Shown here piece by piece: positions 1 through 12,499 of a DNA stretch of 64,000 bases. The DNA is from Spirochaetota bacterium (GTDB taxonomy: Bacteria; Spirochaetota; UBA12135; COTS27; CBDBHE01), in assembly GCA_965205605.1 (NCBI GenBank), contig CBDBHE010000007.1, positions 320,001 through 384,000 of the forward strand, written 5' to 3'. The notes beneath the pieces are model-generated. The model was given only the letters and a program-made list of their open reading frames with translations, had not been told where the DNA came from and did not search any database. The position numbers and the translations under genes are program-made. Within the stretch, counting starts at the first letter, position 1. Each line of letters begins with the position of its first letter.

Positions 1-1138
1 GTAAAAATCGACTGCGATTAACTCCCCTTAACCCCTTCTGCGACAACAAGTAATCTTCACTCACGTATAAATTGTCCTTCGTTAAAAAATGAAACGATTG
101 TATCTCTTCCCTTCCTCCCTTCCCTCTCTCTTCTTCCTCTTCCTCTCCATTATTTCCTTTTCCTTTCCCATTCCCATTTCCATTCCCATTCCCATTCCCA
201 GTCCCATTCCCAGTCCCTTTAGAAAATGATTTAACAAATGACCCGCCTCCCGTTTTAGCACCAGAAAAAAAAGTCTTCTTTTCAATGAAGTACTCCCTTA
301 CCCAATGCTCCCTGCCTTTCGGATTGCAATCACACACCAGTTTCGAAACTCGCTCTTGCATCAAGTCACGTCCCCCATGAAGCCGAGTAAGCAACTTCTC
401 AAAATCTAAAAAATCAATGTCCGTAATCTCTCCAATAAAAATATCCGCCCATTCGCTTCCTAGCACCGCATCACGGTGGCGAGAGTTTTCAATCCCTCCC
501 ATCTCAATCACCGAACCATTCCTAAACACAATCTGCCTTTTCGCTTTCTCTTCTCTCCACTCTCCCCCTTCACCCCCCAACATCCGTTTTAAAACCCCAA
601 GCAACGTCTGCTCATATACCGTCTTCATCACACTCGTCACCGTCTTCCTCACCACTAGCCTCCTCGTCTGCGGCATCAAACAACTCCTAGCTACAAAAAA
701 AACACACAATAAAAAAGTCTTGCCAGCTCGACTAGCCCCATACAATAAAAAACTCTTCCCTTCTCCCCAAAGTCGTCCCCACACTTCCTTTTGACGCTCG
801 CTTAAATCTACCATCCGATATTTTAAAATCTCTCTCCCATTACCTCTCTCAAAACCTCTCCCATTACCTCTCTCAAAACTTCGTCCCTCTCCCAAACTTC
901 CTTCCTCCCCTCTTTCTCTTTCTCTTTCTCTTTCTCTTTCTCTTTCTCTTTCTTCCTTCCTTCTTTTGCCTTCAAATCGCTCCATCATCTCGACAAGCTT
1001 AATCAGCCCACGAGGGTCCTCTTTACTCTTCTCCATAAACCCTCTCACCATTTGCTCTACCCCTCTTAGTCCCTCTCCCTTTTCCCCAAACAAGTATTCG
1101 CTAATAAACCCTTCTATCTTTTCTAAAATCCTTCTCAT
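1..1138 (-). CDS. Phage terminase large subunit (PBSX-like), N-terminal ATPase half; runs off the left window edge
   Basis: Manual translation from ATG at 1138 (SD GGGGAGG upstream) is open to base 2. It shows a Q-motif LSERQ, Walker A LYGASRAGKT, RRLVVRKT, FRNGSVIEMGG, Walker B-like GSEWADIFIGE, coupling motif DCNPKGREHW and TKDNLYVSEDY...RSRFL. Not in the ORF track because there is no stop in the window. Confidence 0.85.
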   Translation of the reverse strand, partial: MRRILEKIEGFISEYLFGEKGEGLRGVEQMVRGFMEKSKEDPRGLIKLVEMMERFEGKRRKEERERERERERERERGEEGSLGEGRSFERGNGRGFERGNGREILKYRMVDLSERQKEVWGRLWGEGKSFLLYGASRAGKTFLLCVFFVARSCLMPQTRRLVVRKTVTSVMKTVYEQTLLGVLKRMLGGEGGEWREEKAKRQIVFRNGSVIEMGGIENSRHRDAVLGSEWADIFIGEITDIDFLDFEKLLTRLHGGRDLMQERVSKLVCDCNPKGREHWVREYFIEKKTFFSGAKTGGGSFVKSFSKGTGNGTGNGNGNGNGNGKGKGNNGEEEEEERGKGGREEIQSFHFLTKDNLYVSEDYLLSQKGLRGVNRSRFL

Positions 1139-1232
1139 TTCTATTTTTTTCCTCCCCTTGATACTTTTCTTTTAAACAGAGACTTATCTTCTCCTTTTTT
1201 TGTTTCGTTTCTTCTTCTTCTATCCTTCTCTT

Positions 1233-1349
1233 TATAAAATTAACCTATAAAATTAACCTATAAAATTAACCTATAAAATTAACCTATAAAATTAACCTAT
1301 AAAATTAACCTATAAAATTAACCTATAAAATTAACCTATAAAGTCAACC
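1233..1349. repeat. 13-bp tandem repeat (TATAAAATTAACC) x9
   Basis: Eight perfect copies plus one variant (TATAAAGTCAACC), upstream of the terminase gene. Confidence 0.95.
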
Positions 1350-1358
1350 TCATCTCTT

Positions 1359-1450
1359 ACAAACAAACTTCATCAAAAACAAACAAACTTCATCAAAAAA
1401 AAAAAAAACTTCATCAAAAAAAAAAAAAACTTCATCAAAAAAAAAAAAAA
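1359..1450. repeat. ~20-bp tandem repeat (AAACTTCATCAAAA core) x4, decaying into poly-A
   Basis: Read directly from the sequence. Confidence 0.85.
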
Positions 1451-1764
1451 AGTGTCGAAAATATAAAAATAAACATAAAAAAATAAAAAATATAAAAACA
1501 AAGAATGTTTATCTTTATCATAGAACGTCAAGCACATAAAAAGTTCGTTGCTAAACCTCAAACAAAGAAAATTAAAAACTTGCTTAAAAAAAAAATAAAA
1601 ATTAATCTTTGGTTTAAAAAAAAATAAAAATTTTTTTATCTCTTCTTACGCGCCTTATCATAAACACAGACTTTCTTCGCTTGGTTATTTCTTCTTTAAC
1701 TAAGAACTTAATAAAAAAAAACAAAATTAATTTCTGTTTATCGTTAAATGTCAAGCACATTTTT

Positions 1765-2049
1765 TTATGATATTCTTAACACCTTTTCTTTTCGGTGCCT
1801 CTCTTTTTCCACAAACTCTGGAAATAGCCTATCTACCTTCTCTCTAAGCTCTATCATCTGACAACGAGGACACTTCGCCCCAGCCACAAAGCCTCCCTTA
1901 AAACAAGCCCTCTTATCACAATGACACTTTAACCTCTCTAACATCTCTTCATCTCTCATCGAAATCGCTCGATTGTACACTTCCCTCTCTTCACTCGTGT
2001 ATCCCCATTCTTTCAGCCTCTTTTCCTTTAGCCTTCTCATCAAACTCAT
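1765..2049 (-). CDS. Hypothetical phage protein, Cys-rich (CxC...C...CxxC, possible Zn-binding)
   Basis: 94-aa ORF, purine-rich SD-like leader (GGGGAGAGAAGGG), motifs CHC and CPRC; co-oriented with the terminase. Confidence 0.6.
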   Translation of the reverse strand: MSLMRRLKEKRLKEWGYTSEEREVYNRAISMRDEEMLERLKCHCDKRACFKGGFVAGAKCPRCQMIELREKVDRLFPEFVEKERHRKEKVLRIS

Positions 2050-2314
2050 CCCTTCTCTCCCCTCTCATTTTTTTTTTTTTTTTCCTCAAAACTCTTTTTA
2101 AAATCAAAAAAAAAAAAAAAGTCGTTTTTAGATTACGCCAGTTTCCTCTCCTGTCAATTAATTTTCCCTCCCCTCAATGTGAAGCAGTCACTTTAAAAAC
2201 AATCCACACTCCTCCGTGCTTTTAAAACAGCAGCATTTTTTTTAATTTTTTCTTTTTTTTATGATATCCTTGACATTCGATAATAAATACATAAAAAAAT
2301 TAAAGGAGACTGCT

Positions 2315-2596
2315 ATGAGAGGATTGATTCATTTTTTTAGAGAGCTTGTCGGAGAGATTACAGAGTTGCTAATGGAGATTTTTGGGGAAAGAATGCGCTT
2401 ACTGCTCAGTGAATTGTTAAAAACTTCTTTCATTGCGATTTTACTCATCGCCTCGCTTCAAATCTTAGAAATCCCCTTTTTTAATCAAATCGATGTTTTA
2501 GGGCGGACTTTAAACCTCATTGACCGACTAGGCGACTGGGCAGGGTGGTTGGCTTTATTCACAGCTCTTTACTTTATTTCAAAACAAACCAAATGA
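2315..2596 (+). CDS. Small membrane protein with 2 predicted TM segments
   Basis: SD AAGGAG precedes ATG 2315, which is in frame with ORF 2261..2596; two hydrophobic stretches and a basic C-terminus. Confidence 0.6.
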   Translation: MRGLIHFFRELVGEITELLMEIFGERMRLLLSELLKTSFIAILLIASLQILEIPFFNQIDVLGRTLNLIDRLGDWAGWLALFTALYFISKQTK

Positions 2597-2708
2597 ACTC
2601 CATTTTACAAAAAAAAAAAAGTAAATTATTTTCTTAATTAAAAAAATAAAATTAATCTCTGTTTATCTTAAAAAGTTAAGCATCTCAAAAAAAAAAAAAA
2701 AAAAAAAG

Positions 2709-2736
2709 TTGACCAACTCTTTTTTGGTTTTACAAT
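2709..2736 (+). promoter_or_regulatory. Sigma70-like promoter for the replication initiator gene, preceded by an A21 tract
   Basis: TTGACC-16 bp-TACAAT; SD AAGGAG further downstream before ATG 2793. Confidence 0.5.
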
Positions 2737-2792
2737 TTACTTATTCTTGCCCCTTACAGCAATAAACCACCCAAAGGAGACCATCAAAGCCA

Positions 2793-3662
2793 ATGAAACC
2801 TCTCGTTAACGAGTTTTCTTTAATTTTTAGCCCAAGCCTTTCAAAACACTTGGGACTCAAACAAGCCATTTTCTTGCAACAACTTCATTACTGGATTGTT
2901 AAAAAAATCGAAAAAGACCCCGAAAATCCAAAGTCTTTTTGGGTTTACAACACCGCAAAACAGTGGTGCGAGCAACTGCCTTTTTTGTCTGAAAAATCTT
3001 TCTGGCGACTTATCTCGTCTTTGAAAAAAAAAAACCTTCTGCTTGTCTCAAACCAAAACCGACTTAAGTTTGATAAAACTAATTGGTATTCTCTCCATTA
3101 CCAAAACTTGCATTCTCTTTTTAAATGGCCTCTATCATCGGCCCCTTCATCACAACCAACTGCTTCATCACAATCCCCCAAAAGTCGTTTAAGCTCTAAC
3201 CCTCCTCCTCCATTGTTTCCCACTCCTTTAGTCCAAATTGACCCTTCCCACCTGCCCCCTTTGACCCCCCCTATACCAGAGACTAACCCTAAGACTACTC
3301 ATCCATCTATTTCTTTATCCATTCCTTCCCCATCACCTACTGATTTTTCTTTACCCCCTCAAGAGCCGTCATTAAAAAAACCCTTAGAAGAGAAAAATGT
3401 TTTTTTAAGTAAATCTCAAGTGGTCTTTTTGTTAAAAAAATATTCCAAGACCTTGCTTAGGAAGTTTATTAAAAAATTAAGCTTGTACAAGTGGTCTTCG
3501 GGAAAAAAGTACGCATGTGATTTCGCTGCAATTTTAAACTGGGTGGCCGTGGCCGTCTTGAAAGAAGAAAAAACAGCTTCGCGAAAACCTAGCTCAAGGG
3601 CTTATAAACTCCACCCCAATCAAAGGGCTCTTAAACGCTATTTGGAAATGGAAAAAAATTAA
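2793..3662 (+). CDS. Phage replication initiator / replisome organizer
   Basis: N-terminal wHTH motif LGLKQAIFLQQLHYW...WVYNT..QW..QLPF.SE; Pro/Ser linker; C-terminal GKKY.CDFAAILNW, typical of phage initiators. Confidence 0.8.
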   Translation: MKPLVNEFSLIFSPSLSKHLGLKQAIFLQQLHYWIVKKIEKDPENPKSFWVYNTAKQWCEQLPFLSEKSFWRLISSLKKKNLLLVSNQNRLKFDKTNWYSLHYQNLHSLFKWPLSSAPSSQPTASSQSPKSRLSSNPPPPLFPTPLVQIDPSHLPPLTPPIPETNPKTTHPSISLSIPSPSPTDFSLPPQEPSLKKPLEEKNVFLSKSQVVFLLKKYSKTLLRKFIKKLSLYKWSSGKKYACDFAAILNWVAVAVLKEEKTASRKPSSRAYKLHPNQRALKRYLEMEKN

Positions 3663-3876
3663 ATACTTCATTTAAAAACTACCTTTAAAAAACTCTATTT
3701 AAGAAAAAATAACCAAGGAAAAAGTATTTATATTGATGATTAAACGTTAAGAACATTTTTTTTATGTGCTTAAGTGTTCTACGATTTACACACCCTCTCT
3801 TTGCTTGGCATTTCTTCTTTAACCCCGCATATAAAAAAAAATGTTAAGCACAGGAAAGAATAAAAAAGGAGTCAAA

Positions 3877-4179
3877 ATGGACGTAGAGAAAAAGAAAGTG
3901 TTAAAAATGGTGATGAGTCTTTTTGAGTCAAAGCTCAAGCGATATAATGAAAACACTTTGGAAGTTTGGGTTGAGATGTTAAGGGGTTATGAAGAGAAAA
4001 AACTCAATGACGTATTTTTACAAGTCATTCGTAGTGGGGATGAGTTTCCTTCGGTTGGGAAAATGATTGAAATCATGGAGCACGGGGAGCTTTTAAATGA
4101 AAGCGAGCGTCAAGAAATCTACTACCGGCAAAAACGAAAAGAAGCTTTATTACTTTTAGAGGAGGCAAAGGAGGAATAA
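3877..4179 (+). CDS. Putative helicase loader/inhibitor (SPP1 G39P-like)
   Basis: SD AAGGAG before ATG 3877; pattern VW.EML.GY....L..VF...I.....FPSV; lies directly after the initiator. Confidence 0.55.
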   Translation: MDVEKKKVLKMVMSLFESKLKRYNENTLEVWVEMLRGYEEKKLNDVFLQVIRSGDEFPSVGKMIEIMEHGELLNESERQEIYYRQKRKEALLLLEEAKEE

Positions 4180-4218
4180 AAAAACAAGAAGAAATAAAAA
4201 AAAACGAGGAGGTAATCC

Positions 4219-4659
4219 GTGAAACATGGTGATAAAAAAGCAAGTGAGTTAAAAGGTTTTAGTGGTCTAAAGGGAGAAGTAAGTGTGTACTTGGAAGGGC
4301 TAAAAAAAAGACTGGGAAGGGAGGAGAAGGACAAAAGTTGTCCGCGATGTCAAGGCAAAATGGTGATGCTAGGAGGGAAGGTGTTTTGTGGGGAGTTTTG
4401 TTTTGAAGAAGAAAAGGAAGCGAAGAAAAAGAAGGACAAAAGAAGGATGAAGCTAACGATGTTTGATGAAAAGATGCAGCAACTTTTTTTGTCTAAAGGG
4501 AGGAAGGTGCCTTCGATTGAGATGGTGAAGATTTGGTGGGAGGTGGTTTGCGAAGAGCAAGAAGAAAGTTTAAGGGGTGGATTTAAAACGTATATGATGA
4601 GTCTTAGGAGTGATTTGCAAGTTTCTGTTTTATTGGATTTTGCTAGGAATAGCCGCTAA
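4219..4659 (+). CDS. Phage hypothetical protein: Zn-ribbon (CPRC...CGEFC) plus a second G39P-like helical domain
   Basis: SD GAGGAGG before GTG; CxxC/CxxxC pairs; C-terminal IWWEVV...LRGGF pattern resembles the upstream ORF. Confidence 0.55.
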   Translation: MKHGDKKASELKGFSGLKGEVSVYLEGLKKRLGREEKDKSCPRCQGKMVMLGGKVFCGEFCFEEEKEAKKKKDKRRMKLTMFDEKMQQLFLSKGRKVPSIEMVKIWWEVVCEEQEESLRGGFKTYMMSLRSDLQVSVLLDFARNSR

Positions 4660-5032
4660 GAAAAGGCTTTATTTTAGAAGGAATAATAAAGCGAAGAGTA
4701 TTTATATTTATGAAAAAAAATATCAAGCGAAGACAATTTTTGTTTGTCGTTAAATGTCAAGCTTTAACATAAAGTTTAAGAAAAAATAATAAAGCGAAGA
4801 GTATTTATATTTATCCGAAGAGTATTTATATTTATGATCAGGTGTGAAGCCGATCAAAAAAAAAAAAAAAAAAAAAAAGTGAAAAGTGTTAAGAACATAA
4901 AAAAAAAAAATCGTTAAATTTGAAGAACACAGGAAAATAAATAAGATACCGAAGACGTAGAAAAAACAATGGCTTTCATTTAAGAAAGAATAATGAACTC
5001 TATTTAAGAAGATAAAAAAAAGAAAAGAGGTA

Positions 5033-5356
5033 GTGAAAAGTATGGAAAAAATCAAAAATGAAAATAAAGAAACAGGAAGTTTTTTTGGAGAGAAGAAATT
5101 GGAAGTATTACTCAATCGAGTGAGGATGAAGATAAAATACGGCACTGACTTGACGATTGGAGAAGTGGCGGCTTACTTATCGCTGAGTGTGAGCAAAGTG
5201 AGGAACTTACTGGGGCTAGGGAAGGTTTTTTATGAAGGGAGGTGGCTTTTTTCGACTAAGAAATTAAACTTCATTCGGTTAGGACGTTCTATTCGGATAC
5301 CGACGAAATCATTTTTACTGTTTTTAAAAGAGACGGAGAACGAAAAGGATGTTTAA
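5033..5356 (+). CDS. Excisionase-like (HTH_17/MerR-type) DNA-binding protein
   Basis: LTIGEVAAYLSLSVSKVRNLL...IRLGRSIRIP motif; SD GAGG. Confidence 0.8.
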   Translation: MKSMEKIKNENKETGSFFGEKKLEVLLNRVRMKIKYGTDLTIGEVAAYLSLSVSKVRNLLGLGKVFYEGRWLFSTKKLNFIRLGRSIRIPTKSFLLFLKETENEKDV

Positions 5357-5619
5357 AAACTTGCTTAAAGAAGAAATGTGAAGGAAGATTTGACATAAAA
5401 AAAAGAAGCGAAGAGTATTGATATTTATGATTAAACGTGAAGGACAGGAAAAAAGATAACATAAAAGATATCAAGGAGATAATAAAGAAACTTGATAGAA
5501 TGGGAAAGGAATGCTAAGATGATGTTTTTGGTGATTAGAGGGGCTAAAGAAATAAAAAGGCCGTGAGAAAAAAGGGCTTTAAAGGGTTTTAAAGGGTTTT
5601 TAAAAGGAGGTGGTATGGG

Positions 5620-6009
5620 ATGAAACGAACTGAGCTGGAAAGGAAAAAGAGAGACTTAAAAAAAAGAGAGAAGAAAGAGAAGTTGCTGGCAGAAAAGATT
5701 GAGCTTAGGGAATTAGTCCGTGGTGAAGTCCACAGCGAAGATTTTTTTAAGGAAGGGGGTGGAGGAGAAAAAGGTGGTATGAGGAAAGGAGCGGGAGTTT
5801 ATATCAAGACATTAAGTGGATTATTTCGGTATGACGAGGAAGAGATTTACAATTTAAGTGACGAGAGGATTTTAAACGTGCTCATTGAGATAAAGGAGGT
5901 GGTACCGAGAACGAAATGGGACAATGTTTTGAGGAAAGCGATTAGGAGCACGAAGGTAAGGAAAAAAGAGAATGCTTTTATTGAGTTAAAATCTCTTTTG
6001 GAAGATTAA
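5620..6009 (+). CDS. Conserved hypothetical protein, probably host-derived
   Basis: Strong SD AAGGAGGT; upstream TTGATA-17-TAAGAT. The C-terminal YDEEEIYNLSD...W..VLRKAIR.T.V domain resembles, from memory, spirochaete hypotheticals. Confidence 0.65.
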   Translation: MKRTELERKKRDLKKREKKEKLLAEKIELRELVRGEVHSEDFFKEGGGGEKGGMRKGAGVYIKTLSGLFRYDEEEIYNLSDERILNVLIEIKEVVPRTKWDNVLRKAIRSTKVRKKENAFIELKSLLED

Positions 6010-6092
6010 AGGCTTGGTTTAAGGCTTGGTTTAAGGCTTGATTTAAGGCTTGATTTAAGGCTTGATTTAAGGCTTGATTTAAGGCTTGATTT
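6009..6092. repeat. 12-bp tandem repeat (AAGGCTTGRTTT) x7
   Basis: Copies start at 6009, 6021, 6033, 6045, 6057, 6069 and 6081. Confidence 0.95.
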
Positions 6093-6263
6093 AAAAACTC
6101 TATTTAAGAAAAAATAACGAAGCGAAAAAAAGTCTTTGTTTTACAAAAAATAATAAAGCAAATTATTTTCTTAATTAAAAAAACAGAATTAATTTTTGTT
6201 TGTCGTTAAATGTCAAGCATATGAAAAAAGAATCATAAGATTTTAATCAAAGGGAAGAAGGCT

Positions 6264-8858
6264 ATGAAAAAAAAGACTTTATTAATTTTATTGGTAATGT
6301 TGATGTTTTGGCTAGAGGTTTGGAGTGCTGATAGAGAGCGAGAAAGGAGCGGAGTGATATTAAAACGAGGGGATAATTTTTTTAAGGAAGTTTATTTAGA
6401 AGGTACACTTGAGGTTTTTTTAGAGAACAGGGTTGACTTTGGGACGGTTCAAAATGAGACGGTGGGGGGGCTTAGTGAGAGTGAGCGGTATGTATTTTCG
6501 CTAAGGGGAGGAGGGTATGTTTGGAATCAATTTTTTTATCAAGGCTTTAATATCACTGATAGCTTGATTAGTGGCAGTAGTTTGTATAAGCTTTTTCTTT
6601 TTGACAAGAGGTTGGAGATTAATGGGTCGAAGGGGCACTTTTCAATCGAGGACGATTTTTTGGGGGGAAGCGAATGGAGGATAGAAGGGCAGGTTTCTCC
6701 TTTTGGGGAGCGATTTTTTTTAGCGGATGCTTGGACGAGAGAGCTTGGAGGGTATTCTTCGGTGTATGAGAGGGAGGGCAATTTACTAAAGGACGAGGGG
6801 AAGAGGAGGGGACGAGTACCGTTTAGTTTTTCAGGGATGGTGAGGAAGGTGTTGAAGAGAGGTGGTGAGGAAAGGAATGAGGCAGGAGGAGGGAATGGGA
6901 GAGGGAGAGGAAATAATTCAGTAAGTGTGTTTGAAATGAGTTATCTTGAGATGAGGCGAGAGTTAAGAGAGATTGATTTTAGAGGGGAGGAGGGACGATA
7001 TGAGAGTGGGTTTAGGCGATTGGGGGGACGGTTTGAAAAGAAGTGGACTAGTGGAGTGGGGGAAGGGGCTAGTGAGTGGCACTTAGGGCAATTATTTTTG
7101 GTGAGTGAGAATGATAATTTTGATTCTTATTTAGGGCTGGATAAGAGGGAAGGGAGAAGGTTAGGAGGTGGGACGTGGAGTAGTTTTTTAAAGGGGAAGA
7201 AAGGAGGGTGGGAAGGCACTGGGGGAGTGAATGTGTCTTATAAGAGATTTGAAGGGCAAGTGGGAGGAGAAGGAGGAGTAAGTTATAATGTTTTTGATTT
7301 AGGGGGAGAGAGGGTGGGGTCTTTTTTATCTCCTTTGTATGAAGGGGTGAGTGTGTCGGTTCCTTTGAAGGTAGAGCTTGATTTAGAGGGGAAGGGATGG
7401 ATGAGGGGGACGAAAATAGTTTTAGATTCGAAGGATGATTTTATTTTCACATTTCCGGTTGTGAGGCGACGAACGCATGGGGTGTATTTTGAAACGGAAG
7501 AGGAACGTTTTTCACTTTACGCTAGGAGGGAGGTGTTGAGGGAAAGTGAGAGTTGGTTAAGTCATCGGTCTTTAGGGATAAAGGGATTTATGGATTGGTT
7601 TAAGGATAGGTTTTTTATGAGTGCGTGGGAGGTAGCGATGGAGGGGAGTGGGTTTATAATTAGAGGGGAGGAGAGATTATTTTTTATGAACGCGAGTTTT
7701 GAATTAAAAAACAGCTTTAATTTCAGCGATATTTTTGAAATTGAAATTGATATTGGGAAAAAGAACATTGGTTTAGAGAGCAAAACGATGTTATTTTTTT
7801 CCGACTCTTTTTCATCGAGTGAGAGTTATTACTGGGCGGATAAGAACGACAATCAAAGAGTAGAAGAAGGAGAAGTAAGTGAGAAGGTGTTTGATACGAG
7901 CGGAGGGAGATGGCATCGACTGAGGGAAGATTTAAGACAACCGTATTTGTTGTATTTGGAACTTCCTTTGAGGGTGAGGGCGAGTGAAGCGATTGGTTTT
8001 GAGTGGGGATTTTCTTACCGTTCGTTTAGGGACTTGTACTGGGTGAGTTACAAGGAAGATGAGAGGGAGGTAGGGTTTTTTGAAACCGATGAAGAAGGAA
8101 GGGAGTGGTATTTTTTAAAGGAAGGGGAGAAGGTCTATGAAGTGGGTAATTTTAATTTAAATGAAGGGTTGCTAAAAGAAAGGGTGAGTGAAGAAGAGTG
8201 GCCCAGGGGTCATTTTTTTTTAGAGCATCCTTTTTATTTATCGATGAGGCTTGGGCTTGATTATGAAAAGGAAGACATTAGGGCTGGGATTAGTTTCACG
8301 GCATTTTTAGTGATGATGATAAACAGCAGGGGAAATGGGGTAGGTTATCAAAGCTTGGGCTTACTTTCAGAACAAACGGCAAACCCAAACGGGTATCGAT
8401 TTTCAGCGGGCAGAGGAGATGCTGATAGGGGGTATTTTATGAAAGCGTATTATTACCATAAAATCAATTCGCATTTTTCTAGCAGCTGGACTCTCAAGTA
8501 TCGAGACGGACAACCTTTTGGGGTATCTGAGAGTCGAGTCAAAGAAACGGCTCTTGTGGGGGGAGGAAAAGGGAGGCAAGTGAGTTTTCAAAGAAGTAAT
8601 GTGCATGGAGACAATATTTTCAATGGTAAGTTTGGCAGGAGAGAAGACTCTCACTGGGATTTAAGTGGGCGCTTTAGAGTTTATTTTTTTAAAAGCAAAA
8701 AAAAGAATCTCAGTTTTTTTTTTTCTGTGGAAAACCTCCTTGACTTGGGGTCTGCTATCCTAGAAGACACGTTAAGGGAGGAGGGCAAAAAAAATCGACT
8801 TGCTCTCAAAGTAGAGCCGCCTAGGTCTGTTAGTGTGGGGTTAGAAGGGACTTTTTAA
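6264..8858 (+). CDS. Outer-membrane beta-barrel protein, TonB-dependent receptor-like
   Basis: Signal peptide; alternating beta-strand pattern; VENLLD and PPRSVSVGLEGTF C-terminus ending in Phe. Confidence 0.7.
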   Translation: MKKKTLLILLVMLMFWLEVWSADRERERSGVILKRGDNFFKEVYLEGTLEVFLENRVDFGTVQNETVGGLSESERYVFSLRGGGYVWNQFFYQGFNITDSLISGSSLYKLFLFDKRLEINGSKGHFSIEDDFLGGSEWRIEGQVSPFGERFFLADAWTRELGGYSSVYEREGNLLKDEGKRRGRVPFSFSGMVRKVLKRGGEERNEAGGGNGRGRGNNSVSVFEMSYLEMRRELREIDFRGEEGRYESGFRRLGGRFEKKWTSGVGEGASEWHLGQLFLVSENDNFDSYLGLDKREGRRLGGGTWSSFLKGKKGGWEGTGGVNVSYKRFEGQVGGEGGVSYNVFDLGGERVGSFLSPLYEGVSVSVPLKVELDLEGKGWMRGTKIVLDSKDDFIFTFPVVRRRTHGVYFETEEERFSLYARREVLRESESWLSHRSLGIKGFMDWFKDRFFMSAWEVAMEGSGFIIRGEERLFFMNASFELKNSFNFSDIFEIEIDIGKKNIGLESKTMLFFSDSFSSSESYYWADKNDNQRVEEGEVSEKVFDTSGGRWHRLREDLRQPYLLYLELPLRVRASEAIGFEWGFSYRSFRDLYWVSYKEDEREVGFFETDEEGREWYFLKEGEKVYEVGNFNLNEGLLKERVSEEEWPRGHFFLEHPFYLSMRLGLDYEKEDIRAGISFTAFLVMMINSRGNGVGYQSLGLLSEQTANPNGYRFSAGRGDADRGYFMKAYYYHKINSHFSSSWTLKYRDGQPFGVSESRVKETALVGGGKGRQVSFQRSNVHGDNIFNGKFGRREDSHWDLSGRFRVYFFKSKKKNLSFFFSVENLLDLGSAILEDTLREEGKKNRLALKVEPPRSVSVGLEGTF

Positions 8859-10051
8859 AACCCCAAGAGAAACTTTAAATCTTGGGTGTATTTTGTAAGA
8901 AGCTTTAGAGAAAGGTATTCATTTTTTTGGTGAGCTTGGCTAGGAAGGCCGAGTCCATAGTTAAGGGAGGGGATGGAGAAGTCGGTGAGTTGGGCGACGT
9001 CTGTCCAGGCTTGTTTAGGGTGAAGGGTGAGAGAGAGGTTGGTGATGGCTTTTTTGATGAAGGAGTCAAAAAAAGGCGAAGAGAGAGGGGTGGCTCCTTT
9101 AGTGTTGGAGACAATTTCAAGTTTCATGTTAGGGGGAGTTTTAATTTTTTTTAGGAAGGCTGTGAGAGAAAAAAAGGCTTGACGGGGAGTGAAAAAAGGA
9201 GCGTAGCGATAATTGACTCTCGCGGTAAACTTGTGGGGCAAGGTGGTGAAACTTTTGCCGATGCGATTAGAGTGAGCATGAGTGATTTGAAAGACTTCAA
9301 AAAAATCAAGGCCACCGACTTTAATTTTTTTAGGTTTTAGCGTTGAAAAAGCCTTTAAAAACGAAACCGCTTGATAAATCGCATTGCTTCCTTGCCAAGG
9401 CCTAGCCGAATGAGCTGACTTACCAAAAAACGTCATCTCAGCATGCAAGCTACCCAAAGCCCCTAAGTGAATCATCCCTTCGGTTGGCTCTCCCACGATG
9501 GCAAGGTTTACGCTTTTAAAAAAAGCTCGATGATTTCTCAGCATCGAATACAGCCCGTTGTCTTCTAATTTGGTGCCTTCTTCACGACTATAAAGCACCA
9601 CAGAAAGGCGGTAAGAAAGATGACGATACCTATTTTTTTGACACAAAAGCTCTAGCAAATGAAGGTACACCCCCACACTGCCTTTCATATCACTGGCCCC
9701 CCTGCCATGTAAAAAATCTCCTTTTACATACGACTTAAACCATTCTCCTACCACGTCCACATGCCCCACTAAAATCACATGCGGTTTCTTTTTCTTATCT
9801 TCCCTCTCACTTTCTTTAAACTCAACAATAAGACCATCGATTTCATTGCCCGTTAAAATCAGTTTTTCAAACACCTTTGCCTTCGACTTAAGTCGATTTT
9901 TTATAAACGTATAAAAAGGCTTTTCTTTATAAGTAGGGCTTTCAATATCCAACACTTGCTTGATGAGCTCCCCTAAAGCTTTTTCTTCTTTTCTCTCTAA
10001 AAGCGGTAATGGTTTTCCATTTTTTGTTTTTAAAGCTTGATAAACGGACAC
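8855..10051 (-). CDS. dapE: Succinyl-diaminopimelate desuccinylase (M20 family)
   Basis: GHVDVV, HGRGASDMKG, REE, HSARPWQGSNAI, AWTDVAQ and AHQKNE motifs; dapB is nearby. Confidence 0.8.
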   Translation of the reverse strand: MSVYQALKTKNGKPLPLLERKEEKALGELIKQVLDIESPTYKEKPFYTFIKNRLKSKAKVFEKLILTGNEIDGLIVEFKESEREDKKKKPHVILVGHVDVVGEWFKSYVKGDFLHGRGASDMKGSVGVYLHLLELLCQKNRYRHLSYRLSVVLYSREEGTKLEDNGLYSMLRNHRAFFKSVNLAIVGEPTEGMIHLGALGSLHAEMTFFGKSAHSARPWQGSNAIYQAVSFLKAFSTLKPKKIKVGGLDFFEVFQITHAHSNRIGKSFTTLPHKFTARVNYRYAPFFTPRQAFFSLTAFLKKIKTPPNMKLEIVSNTKGATPLSSPFFDSFIKKAITNLSLTLHPKQAWTDVAQLTDFSIPSLNYGLGLPSQAHQKNEYLSLKLLTKYTQDLKFLLGF

Positions 10052-10057
10052 GGTTTC

Positions 10058-12499
10058 TTAATCTTTACCTAAACGGTCTTTTTTGGTTTCTTTCCCCTCA
10101 GAACTTCTTCTCTCGGAACTCCTTCCTTCAGAGTTTCTTCCTCGATCGGAACTTCTTTTTCCTTCTGAGCTCCACGTTTTAAAGCCTCGTCCCTCGGAAC
10201 TTCCTGTTTTAAATCTTCTTCCTTCAGAACTTCGTCCCTCAGAACTTCTTCTCTCGGAACTCCTTCCTTCAGAGTTTCTTCCTCGATCGGAACTTCTTTT
10301 TCCTTCTGAGCTCCACGTTTTAAAGCCTCGTCCCTCGGAACTTCCTGTTTTAAATCTTCTTCCTTCAGAACTTCGTCCCTCAGAACTTCTTCTCTCGGAA
10401 CTCCTTCCTTCAGAGTTTCTTCCTCGATCGGAACTTCTTTTTCCTTCTGAGCTCCACGTTTTAAAGCCTCGTCCCTCGGAACTTCCTGTTTTAAATCTTC
10501 TTCCTTCAGAACTTCGTCCCTCAGAACTTCTTCTCTCGGAACTCCTTCCTTCAGAGTTTCTTCCTCGATCGGAACTTCTTTTTCCTTCTGAGCTCCACGT
10601 TTTAAAGCCTCGTCCCTCGGAACTTCCTGTTTTAAATCTTCTTCCTTCAGAACTTCGTCCCTCAGAACTTCTTCTCTCGGAACTCCTTCCTTCAGAGTTT
10701 CTTCCTCGATCGGAACTTCTTTTTCCTTCTGAGCTCCACGTTTTAAAGCCTCGTCCCTCGGAACTTCCTGTTTTAAATCTTCTTCCTTCAGAACTTCGTC
10801 CCTCAGAACTTCTTCTCTCGGAACTCCTTCCTTCAGAGTTTCTTCCTCGATCGGAACTTCTTTTTCCTTCTGAGCTCCACGTTTTAAAGCCTCGTCCCTC
10901 GGAACTTCCTGTTTTAAATCTTCTTCCTTCAGAACTTCGTCCCTCAGAACTTCTTCTCTCGGAACTCCTTCCTTCAGAGTTTCTTCCTCGATCGGAACTT
11001 CTTTTTCCTTCTGAGCTCCACGTTTTAAAGCCTCGTCCCTCGGAACTTCCTGTTTTAAATCTTCTTCCTTCAGAACTTCGTCCCTCAGAACTTCTTCTCT
11101 CGGAACTCCTTCCTTCAGAGTTTCTTCCTCGATCGGAACTTCTTTTTCCTTCTGAGCTCCACGTTTTAAAGCCTCGTCCCTCGGAACTTCCTGTTTTAAA
11201 TCTTCTTCCTTCAGAACTTCGTCCCTCAGAACTTCTTCTCTCGGAACTCCTTCCTTCAGAGTTTCTTCCTCGATCGGAACTTCTTTTTCCTTCTGAGCTC
11301 CACGTTTTAAAGCCTCGTCCCTCGGAACTTCCTGTTTTAAATCTTCTTCCTTCAGAACTTCGTCCCTCAGAACTTCTTCTCTCGGAACTCCTTCCTTCAG
11401 AGTTTCTTCCTCGATCGGAACTTCTTTTTCCTTCTGAGCTCCACGTTTTAAAGCCTCGTCCCTCGGAACTTCCTGTTTTAAATCTTCTTCCTTCAGAACT
11501 TCGTCCCTCAGAACTTCTTCTCTCGGAACTCCTTCCTTCAGAGTTTCTTCCTCGATCGGAACTTCTTTTTCCTTCTGAGCTCCACGTTTTAAAGCCTCGT
11601 CCCTCGGAACTTCCTGTTTTAAATCTTCTTCCTTCAGAACTTCGTCCCTCAGAACTTCTTCTCTCGGAACTCCTTCCTTCAGAGTTTCTTCCTCGATCGG
11701 AACTTCTTTTTCCTTCTGAGCTCCACGTTTTAAAGCCTCGTCCCTCGGAACTTCCTGTTTTAAATCTTCTTCCTTCAGAACTTCGTCCCTCAGAACTTCT
11801 TCTCTCGGAACTCCTTCCTTCAGAGTTTCTTCCTCGATCGGAACTTCTTTTTCCTTCTGAGCTCCACGTTTTAAAGCCTCGTCCTTCAAACTCTTTTCCG
11901 CCTAAATCTTTTTCTTCTAAATCTTGTCCTTCTAAATCATCCCGATTTAAATCTTCGTCCCTCAGAACTTCTTCCTTCGGAACTTCTTCCTTCAAAGCTC
12001 CACGTTTTAAATCTTCGTCCCTCAGAACTTCTTCCTTCGGAACTTCTTCCTTCAAAGCTCCACGTTTTAAATCTTCGTCCCTCAGAACTTCTTCCTTCGG
12101 AACTTCTTCCTTCAAAGCTCCACGTTTTAAATCTTCTTCCTTCAGAACTTCTTCCTTCGGAACTTCTTCCTTCAAAGCTCCACGTTTTAAAACCTCGTCC
12201 CTCAGAACTTCTTCCTTCAGAGTTTCTTCCTCGATCGGAACTTCTTCCTTCAAAGCTCCACGTTTTAAATCTTCGTCTCTCAGAACTTCTTCCTTCAGAG
12301 TTTCTTCCTCGATCGGAACTTCTTTTTCCTTCTGAGCTCCACGTTTTAAACCTTCTTTCTTTACTTTCTCTAAGCTTTCTTTAGGTGAGTTTCTGGGGGT
12401 AGATGAATCATCTTTTGAAAAAAAAGAAGAATCCTTTTCACTAGATTCATTTGAAGATTCTCTTGAAAGTTCGTTTGAATCTGCTTTATTAAAGGTCAC
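10058..12499 (-). CDS. Intrinsically disordered repeat protein: acidic repeat block followed by an Arg/Ser/Gly repeat block
   Basis: 813-aa ORF with unique N- and C-termini, ending 6 bp before the dapE start; weak GTG start with no clear SD. Confidence 0.65.
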   Translation of the reverse strand: MTFNKADSNELSRESSNESSEKDSSFFSKDDSSTPRNSPKESLEKVKKEGLKRGAQKEKEVPIEEETLKEEVLRDEDLKRGALKEEVPIEEETLKEEVLRDEVLKRGALKEEVPKEEVLKEEDLKRGALKEEVPKEEVLRDEDLKRGALKEEVPKEEVLRDEDLKRGALKEEVPKEEVLRDEDLNRDDLEGQDLEEKDLGGKEFEGRGFKTWSSEGKRSSDRGRNSEGRSSERRSSEGRSSEGRRFKTGSSEGRGFKTWSSEGKRSSDRGRNSEGRSSERRSSEGRSSEGRRFKTGSSEGRGFKTWSSEGKRSSDRGRNSEGRSSERRSSEGRSSEGRRFKTGSSEGRGFKTWSSEGKRSSDRGRNSEGRSSERRSSEGRSSEGRRFKTGSSEGRGFKTWSSEGKRSSDRGRNSEGRSSERRSSEGRSSEGRRFKTGSSEGRGFKTWSSEGKRSSDRGRNSEGRSSERRSSEGRSSEGRRFKTGSSEGRGFKTWSSEGKRSSDRGRNSEGRSSERRSSEGRSSEGRRFKTGSSEGRGFKTWSSEGKRSSDRGRNSEGRSSERRSSEGRSSEGRRFKTGSSEGRGFKTWSSEGKRSSDRGRNSEGRSSERRSSEGRSSEGRRFKTGSSEGRGFKTWSSEGKRSSDRGRNSEGRSSERRSSEGRSSEGRRFKTGSSEGRGFKTWSSEGKRSSDRGRNSEGRSSERRSSEGRSSEGRRFKTGSSEGRGFKTWSSEGKRSSDRGRNSEGRSSERRSSEGRSSEGRRFKTGSSEGRGFKTWSSEGKRSSDRGRNSEGRSSERRSSEGKETKKDRLGKD
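10095..11885. repeat. 141-bp tandem repeat, ~12.7 apparently identical copies
   Basis: Marker GAGCTCCACG recurs at 10167, 10308 ... 11859 (period 141); encodes a 47-aa unit. Confidence 0.97.
11946..12350. repeat. 60-bp tandem repeat (~4 copies) plus longer variants, built from the same 15-bp subunit as the 141-bp array
   Basis: Sequence lines 11941-12180 repeat with period 60; subunit approximately CTTCTTCCTTCAGAA. Confidence 0.9.

Follow-up and report, generated by a model that had tools for sequence, protein, structure and literature searches.

The first 5378 nucleotides of the DNA analysed here appear, by their gene content, to be the right end of a 20.5-kb SPP1-like siphovirus element without an integrase of its own, which resides in the chromosome of a spirochaete. 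The whole stretch, called the window below, comprises 64,000 nucleotides (C7:320,001-384,000, where C7 is contig CBDBHE010000007.1 and window position 1 corresponds to C7:320,001). The element spans C7:304,828-325,378, so that the window holds its right third. All support comes from one metagenome-assembled genome (1.69 Mb on 8 contigs, about 30% G+C, 91% complete), which is the sole member of its family among the genomes compared. In our preferred reading, to which we assign a probability of about 0.42, the element is a long-resident, non-excising ('locked-in') prophage derivative, whose replication module would work in place and would have shaped some 80 kb of chromosome to either side. An earlier note, made from the letters of the window, was largely right in its observations, and its suggestion that the element may be active where it sits and may have shaped its host is partly supported, by evidence that was unexpected and is purely compositional.

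The widest trace is a hill in the G+C content at the four-fold degenerate sites of host genes, from which the genes of the element were excluded. Taken as a 60-kb running value, four-fold G+C peaks with 0.416 at C7:315 kb, which is the centre of the element, compared to a genome median of 0.259 and a maximum of 0.296 outside C7:200-480 kb. In steps of 20 kb it changes leftwards from 0.397 to 0.376, 0.349, 0.337, 0.289, 0.293, and 0.268, and rightwards from 0.420 to 0.394, 0.351, 0.308, 0.306, 0.319, and 0.321 (Spearman correlation -0.58 on the left, n = 95, p = 7e-10, and -0.50 on the right, n = 102, p = 9e-8). The hill is single and smooth, about symmetrical, and some 150 kb in width, with a decay that takes about 80 kb to either side. 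Along the contig the values for host genes are 0.23-0.27 over C7:0-200 kb, 0.41 over 280-360 kb, and then 0.31 and later 0.24-0.29, and the other contigs are flat at 0.18-0.27. In two complete genomes of the order, used as control, the corresponding LB_289-dapE locus is ordinary and does not show a G+C rise. Intergenic G+C rises only weakly and noisily. That the element is compositionally foreign, and hence recent, was dropped as an idea because the neighbouring host genes share the raised G+C in a smooth gradient. A sharp-edged imported island was rejected because the gradient is gradual from gene to gene, and an effect of oriC because dnaA is found at C7:464 kb, about 140 kb from the element, where only 0.31 is reached at four-fold sites. 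Four-fold G+C also drops from about 0.31 in the vicinity of oriC to about 0.20 on other contigs. The element had been described as ameliorated, which is true only with respect to its local neighbourhood, but this neighbourhood itself is anomalous in composition.

A gradual rise of third-position G+C in host genes that peaks at an origin module has a precedent in the run-off replication (ROR) origin of Bartonella, described in Berglund et al. 2009 (PMC2697382). According to Guy et al. 2013 (PMC3610622), third-position G+C rises gradually around the ROR, core genes included, peaks at the ROR itself, and is ascribed to recombination. A link between recombination and G+C in bacteria is argued for by Lassalle et al. 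2015 (PMC4450053). Recombination may likewise be the cause of the hill described here.

The other trace is a skew between the strands. It involves the following features of the window:

2261..2596, plus strand: open reading frame (ORF) of 111 amino acids (aa) without assigned function; C exceeds G at its four-fold sites despite the plus strand
2793..3662, plus strand: replication initiator (phrog_6493 4e-29, phrog_11233 8e-16, phrog_13246 5e-11)
3663..3840, no strand: AT-rich spacer and candidate origin region, in which the strand skew switches sign
3841..4179, plus strand: 112-aa G39P-like helicase-loader candidate (PF11417 0.035 for the protein alone)
4219..4659, plus strand: 146-aa CxxC...C zinc-ribbon protein, whose C-terminal half aligns weakly to the G39P-like profile (hhalign E 0.013, probability 3%)
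5033..5356, plus strand: DNA-binding protein of the excisionase family / HTH_17, with a helix-turn-helix (HTH) (PF12728 2.2e-7; TIGR01764 'excise' 8.3e-7, 29.3 bits against a cut-off of 28.8)
5620..6009, plus strand: host gene of the LB_289 family (NF047642 1e-28)
6264..8858, plus strand: host gene for an 864-aa outer-membrane beta-barrel protein (OMP), whose Atlas neighbours are TonB-receptor-like barrels
8855..10051, minus strand: host dapE (M20 peptidase; PF01546 / PF07687), intact and aligning over its full length to relatives

At about 3.84 kb the skew switches from -0.56 (3001-3400) to +0.63 (4201-4600), the strongest change from minus to plus in the first 13.5 kb. The switch acts on the strand and not on the coding sense, and it reaches into host genes. 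Left of it, the plus-strand genes for the 111-aa protein and the initiator together have G = 18 and C = 39 at four-fold sites, and the minus-strand head and packaging genes have coding skews of 0.61-0.89, with C at 3-11% of the four-fold sites (3-8% excluding the major capsid protein; G = 59 and C = 7 in the large terminase gene terL). Right of it, G by far exceeds C on the plus strand in the genes for the 146-aa protein, the HTH protein, LB_289, and the OMP. The OMP gene has G = 124 and C = 18, one fifth of it even G = 30 and C = 1, and its coding skew of 0.75 is the highest of the 83 plus-strand genes on C7:0-440 kb (mean -0.27, standard deviation 0.30). The G-rich arm then enters the 3' end of the convergent dapE for about 500-600 nt and flips at about 9300-9450; read in coding sense, the 3' quarter of dapE has G = 2 and C = 24 and its 5' half G = 29 and C = 11. 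Because C exceeds G in the plus-strand 111-aa and initiator genes, and because the G-richness continues into the minus-strand dapE, the pattern is not a mere consequence of purine-rich coding strands, and this explanation was abandoned, as two boundaries of the arms do not match changes of gene orientation. A recent inversion of 3.84-9.4 kb was discarded as well because dapE, which spans the right boundary, is intact and conserved over its full length. The host background of four-fold skew, with the plus strand as reference, is about -0.25 over C7:0-440 kb and about +0.3 beyond 470 kb. Throughout the genome the four-fold replication-strand bias is very strong (about +/-0.3 in the mean and up to 0.9 per gene), and its sign changes at dnaA. 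The skew beside the initiator could originate either from forks that leave the spacer behind the initiator gene or from two strong divergent transcripts.

The spacer is preceded by an initiator that combines a DnaD-like N-terminal domain, a Pro/Ser-rich linker, and a replisome-organizer-like C-terminus. Its residues 2-111 are 40-44% identical to replication proteins of Bacillus and Staphylococcus phages; a match in the PDB was not found. A sigma-70-like promoter is located before the gene at 2709-2736, in a scan that is uninformative overall (11 sites in total versus 11.3 expected). The spacer contains a diverged copy (3726-3756) of a 23-nt motif that recurs in the element, and a perfect 12-nt inverted repeat (3752-3763 / 3834-3845). 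In addition, an exact inverted 23-nt copy of sequence from the left end of the element is present at 3800-3822 on the minus strand, where the skew flips. For the 112-aa protein the assignment comes through its homologues, 10 of 29 of which match PF11417 (best 2e-5), and the only PDB match of their profile is 1no1 (E 0.029). The 146-aa protein does not match any family above cut-off, and with the weak hhalign probability it was given up as a second loader. The true start of the HTH gene is perhaps the ATG at 5042. As in the Bartonella ROR, a phage-derived initiator/loader module is thus found in a chromosome without an integrase, and both initiator and loader have been retained intact while the integrase is missing.

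With this exception of the second loader, the gene calls of the earlier note at this boundary agree with our results. It had described a leftward terL, a rightward initiator and Xis-like HTH gene, host-like genes after these, the absence of an integrase and a tRNA, and open reading frames with good ribosome-binding sites, and indeed AGGAG-type sites precede the starts. It had also placed the strongest skew switch right after the initiator and had let the G-rich arm extend into host genes, which it does, through the OMP gene into the 3' end of dapE.

The gene order is divergent: the replication genes and the HTH gene are read rightwards, and the head, tail, and lysis genes are read leftwards past the edge of the window. 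The features of the leftward part within the window are:

2..1138, minus strand: 5' part of terL, the large terminase gene, with 379 of its 587 codons (PF04466 3e-9, phrog_979 2.5e-18)
1139..1764, no strand: non-coding leader, which contains two tandem-repeat arrays (13 nt x 8.5, 21 nt x 4.1)
1765..2049, minus strand: 94-aa zinc-ribbon ORF upstream of terL, coding skew 0.59

At its full length of 587 aa (the gene ends at C7:319,375, outside the window) the terminase matches phrog_2 with 1e-22 and, below the cut-off of the model, TIGR01547 (PBSX family) with 2.8e-15; it contains low-complexity (ER)n and (GN)n inserts. The 94-aa ORF has no family match near a curated cut-off, the sole one listed being TIGR02443 (E 0.0054, 16.6 bits against a cut-off of 49.45), and to regard it as the small terminase, from its position alone, is only a guess. 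Left of terL the minus-strand cluster continues with a 485-aa portal protein, supported by Atlas features only (28 of its 30 nearest named Atlas clusters carry the SPP1-type PF05133), a 259-aa Glu-rich scaffold-like protein, and the major capsid protein (phrog_247 7e-55, PF20036, Gp13-like, 2.4e-7). Four small or unassigned ORFs, a tape-measure-like protein of 344 aa (phrog_3336 4e-7), three more ORFs of the tail region, a 173-aa ORF, and an endolysin with GH108 and PG_binding_3 domains follow. All 16 structural and lysis ORFs are open, as are the replication ORFs. Particle genes of tailed-phage origin (terL, portal, capsid, tape-measure-like protein, endolysin) are thus recognisable. The earlier note had suggested looking for a complete prophage to the left: the full head-tail-lysis module is there, but an integrase does not accompany it.

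The element resembles SPP1 and PBSX in the Gp13-like capsid protein (PF20036), in a portal whose neighbours carry PF05133, in the G39P-like loader and the DnaD-like initiator, and in a terminase that matches Terminase_3 and the PBSX-family model. The SPP1-type portal, gp13-like capsid, and G38P/G39P-type replication module place it among the SPP1-like siphoviruses, with the PF11417 match being indirect, via homologues. It differs in its low identities to these phages, in the lack of a G40P-type helicase gene, and in its spirochaete host. SPP1 packages its DNA by headful, and PBSX packs host DNA.

If the preferred reading is correct, the spacer that follows the initiator gene would be where forks arise, to proceed from there into the adjoining chromosome, and the late transcription unit may also still work. 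The surrounding +/-80 kb or so would be over-replicated and in consequence would be exchanged more often between cells. Since its portal, capsid, and terminase are of SPP1/PBSX type, the element would probably package host DNA by headful. In the long run, these processes would have raised the synonymous G+C around the element and left the local, origin-like skew.

By gene content the ends of the element fall between C7:304,680 and 305,045 on the left (365 nt) and between window positions 5356 and 5620 on the right (264 nt). An integrase or transposase, as would be carried inside an ordinary temperate prophage, was not found in or near the element when the whole genome was searched in six frames with PF00589, PF00239, PF07508, and PF00665. 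PF00589 has 2 matches in the genome, both of Xer-like length and on contig C6, and PF07508 and PF00665 have 0. The sole match of PF00239 is a lone 103-aa ORF 122 kb away (C7:182,992-183,249, minus strand), which covers only the first 80 positions of the resolvase domain and is probably a remnant. C7:280-384 kb does not contain any tRNA gene. The repeated sequences at the right end are:

5353..5378, plus strand: right copy of a 26-nt direct repeat, candidate attR or right end of the element; 25/26 identical to C7:304,828-304,853
6191..6224, plus strand: strong copy of the 23-nt motif, located beyond the repeat that bounds the element and 45 nt before the OMP gene

The 26-nt repeat is the best direct repeat between the 10.5-kb flanks, falls into both end gaps, and bounds 20.5 kb. 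It is rated only as a candidate att site because a repeat of this length (a 19-nt exact match) is found by chance in 8 of 196 random pairs of 10.5-kb regions, because it belongs to a motif family with related copies inside the element, and because copies of the 23-nt motif lie just outside both repeat copies. The earlier statement that att sites are absent has to be amended to this extent. The 23-nt motif is quasi-palindromic (consensus TGTTTRTCGTTAAATGTCAAGCA) and specific to the region: all 9 genome copies with at most 5 mismatches are located in C7:304,793-326,197, as are 13 of the 14 best matches (E <= 0.38) of a profile search. Two copies are present in the terL leader (1507-1539 and 1729-1761), and the copies of the right arm precede the initiator, the loader, the HTH gene, LB_289 (a weak copy at 5421-5446), and the OMP gene. 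It cannot be read as a promoter on either strand and is probably an operator-like site. The microsatellites and poly-A tracts, which the earlier note took to be shared with the host, are in fact enriched in the element (tandem-repeat coverage 6.4% vs 0.89% in the genome; A/T runs of at least 10 at 1.06 vs 0.48 per kb). Tandem repeats in spacers of the window are found at 1233-1450 (13 nt x 8.5, 21 nt x 4.1) and 6004-6094 (12 nt x 7.6), and no other 20-kb stretches of the genome are as rich in repeats as the two beginning at C7:320,001 and 330,001.

The element is located directly upstream of the conserved host pair LB_289-dapE, and the genes to its right (LB_289, OMP, dapE) are host genes, which makes the insertion site a conserved host locus. 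A single LB_289 gene is present in 8 of the 9 genomes compared within the order, and in Leptospira it is found among housekeeping genes. In all relatives examined for gene order (4 of 4), dapE follows it immediately and is read from the same strand. Here, dapE is inverted relative to these, and the OMP gene, which is elsewhere in relatives, intervenes. OMP homologues of 832-949 aa are encoded at other loci in 7 of 8 genomes of the order. OMP and LB_289 were also considered as phage cargo, which was rejected because both are conserved single-copy genes of the order. The OMP is unusually rich in Gly (12.3%), Glu (10.8%), and Arg (8.7%) compared to three orthologues (7.3-7.8%, 5.0-6.2%, and 3.0-5.9%, respectively), and depleted in Pro, Thr, Ala, and Gln. 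On the left, three paralogous genes for MORN-repeat lipoproteins stand beside the endolysin gene, followed by genes for a 2-hydroxyacid dehydrogenase and a HisA-like protein and by tsaD. The MORN_2-repeat lipoprotein family forms two clusters, at C7:301,363-304,680, which abuts the left end of the element, and at C7:690,960-693,191. In the plus-strand stretch C7:296,922-299,482 a 165-aa ORF, tsaD, and the HisA-like gene have coding skews of 0.71, 0.48, and 0.30, which is opposite to the sign of the replichore. Beyond dapE, an 813-aa ORF (window 10058-12499, minus strand) is built mostly from 12.7 copies of a 141-nt unit, with additional repeats of 60 and 78 nt; its product is highly charged, without family match and without paralogue in the genome, and overlapping frames are also open.

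Relatives of the element are rare. The capsid gene was found in 0 of 60 relatives searched, which belong to the same phylum and include none of the same genus or family. Searches of IMG/VR, GTDB species genomes, and JGI metagenomes likewise did not yield any capsid relatives, and the protein is at most 30% identical to that of any phage on record. Among 5.8 billion proteins its only relative is P0002, 86% identical and encoded on a 64,494-nt contig, and a relative of the loader (69% identical) is encoded on a contig of the same length. TsaD and DapE do not have relatives above 49% and 44%, respectively, in the same set. Named TsaD matches (Spirochaet-, Treponem-) and a Leptospira-named NCBIfam family are in keeping with a spirochaete host. 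The sister element is therefore probably not part of a syntenic sister genome, and its lineage appears to have been mobile. The source sample (run X1) contains a second variant of the element of about 85% DNA identity, with a contig depth of 2.9 vs 4-7, at the position of C7:315.5-319.2 kb. Its capsid stretch is identical to P0002 over 73 of 73 residues. Compared with this variant the capsid gene has a dN/dS of 0.11 at a dS of 0.77 (73 codons), which points to purifying selection, and at sites with G/C vs A/T differences the copy described here is the G/C-richer one 18 times vs 7 (p = 0.043).

Several results weigh against a replication module working in place. Support for it is entirely compositional. 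The right arm stops about 600 nt inside dapE, where run-off forks would fade gradually; a positive skew is found on the 'wrong' side of the proposed origin, in the plus-strand tsaD cluster (C7:296.9-299.5 kb); and an iteron array was not found near the initiator. Two strong divergent transcription units would explain the skew arms about as well as forks, and the 111-aa and initiator genes between them, beside the proposed origin, are only at background-level skew. The contig depths of the Logan assemblies are flat (in X1 4.2-6.7 for the element and 6.2 for the flank), which is weak evidence, as depth per contig cannot show a gradient. It is somewhat unlikely, but would accommodate these points, that the element is an ordinary inert cryptic prophage that lost its integrase, that its skew arose from transcription-associated mutation or mosaicism, and that the hill marks a region recombining for other reasons. 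The tail and lysis genes do not have extreme skew, as would be expected of mosaic modules, and the abrupt end of the right arm is less typical of run-off forks than of a terminator or a recombination end-point. Genes for surface proteins are found to the left of the element (the three MORN lipoproteins) as well as to its right (the OMP and the 813-aa repeat protein), and diversifying selection on them could make the region recombination-hot without help from the element, as might spread and loss of the element via flanking homology. However, transcription of an inert prophage would not be expected to be strong enough over evolutionary time to deplete four-fold sites of C to the degree observed in the OMP gene, nor should such a prophage reshape the composition of a host protein. 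As far as the running value can resolve it, the hill has its summit on the element, and the open ORFs and the dN/dS of the capsid gene also count against an inert prophage.

That the element is a still-mobile temperate phage, with the 26-nt repeats as att sites, an unrecognised or host recombinase, the HTH_17 protein as excisionase, and flanks whose composition is unrelated to it, seems improbable. The repeat is situated in both end spacers with an excisionase-family gene at one of its copies, the element has kept its own repeated regulatory motifs, which also counts against the preferred reading, and the contig with the related capsid and loader genes lacks close homologues of the host genes that border the element here. 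The latter argues for past movement of the lineage between hosts, leans against vertical descent, and likewise weighs against the preferred reading. But recombinases of the families searched are absent within 120 kb, with only two Xer-like genes in the genome, and the repeat has the internal relatives and chance length described above; 23-nt motifs just outside both repeats are not expected for an att core. Junctions of excision or of a circle that repeated motifs would not explain were not found in contigs of 4 runs, which is weak evidence because contigs drop rare forms. An apparent joint of 6664 to 11730 was dismissed, as it is the left-end spacer aligning to motif copies. The sequencing runs that contain the sequence do not list any RNA dataset. 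Even less probable is a strict gene transfer agent (GTA), vertically inherited and host-controlled, that packs random host pieces shorter than its 20.5-kb locus. Kogay et al. 2022 (PMC9662315) require of GTAs particles derived from tailed phages that contain mostly random host DNA in pieces shorter than their own locus, mostly vertical inheritance with host co-diversification, and loss of viral replication ability. The lack of an integration module beside head, tail, and lysis genes of phage origin, a capsid under purifying selection, the short tape-measure-like protein, and the hill in host genes would fit. The retained replication module and element-specific motifs, the absence of the capsid from all 60 relatives, and the different genomic context of the close relative do not. 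The locked-in prophage derivative thus remains our preferred reading. The earlier suggestion of a long-resident, host-maintained module is supported by the missing integrase, the conserved locus, the strand-level skew, and the GC hill, but not by the phage-type replication module and the motifs of its own that the element has kept.

Compared with the ROR region of Bartonella and its coupling to BaGTA (PMC2697382, PMC3610622), the likeness lies in the integrase-less chromosomal initiator/loader module of phage origin, in the third-position G+C of host genes, core genes too, that climbs to a peak at the module, and in the nearby genes for surface or host-interaction proteins. In Bartonella, however, a six-gene remnant is accompanied by a separate GTA cluster, whereas here replication and head-tail-lysis genes form one contiguous 20.5-kb element without a helicase or exonuclease gene. 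The hill there extends over several hundred kb compared to about 150 kb here, and the present case is from Spirochaetota and known from sequence alone. Lateral transduction by 80-alpha-type phages of S. aureus and by P22 of Salmonella, as described in PMC8575938 and PMC8575950, starts with in-place replication and packaging before excision and moves flanking host DNA at high frequency. A non-excising element would move flanking DNA by necessity; those phages, however, have integrases, eventually excise, and transfer in one direction from pac, whereas the hill here is about symmetrical. Kogay et al. 2022 (PMC9662315) name a single GTA from spirochaetes, Brachyspira VSH-1 / BhGTA. It is likewise a phage-like head-tail-lysis cluster in a spirochaete chromosome. 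A sequence relation to it was not seen, and the capsid is absent from the 60 genomes of the phylum, among which Brachyspira perhaps was not included. VSH-1 is not known to have an associated replication module.

In the literature searched, run-off replication tied to gene transfer and with a footprint in third-position G+C is described only for Bartonella (Guy et al. 2013), and a spirochaete prophage, GTA, or run-off-replication case besides VSH-1 was not found. It is a far-reaching but doubtful possibility that the element represents a second, independent case of the Bartonella principle, in which a non-excising SPP1-like element would act as secondary origin and as packager that over-replicates and exports about 80 kb on each side, surface-protein genes that would have collected beside it included. 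If this were true, it would have gone on for so long that synonymous G+C rose by 0.16, the local replication skew was reversed, and the amino-acid composition of the OMP was altered. If the footprint is real, such systems could be found from sequence data alone, by looking for phage replication modules on which both a GC hill and a local reversal of skew are centred, and the frequency of locus-targeted gene exchange driven by locked-in prophages may have been underestimated. The element would then offer a concrete, testable locus for how a prophage becomes a tool of its host.

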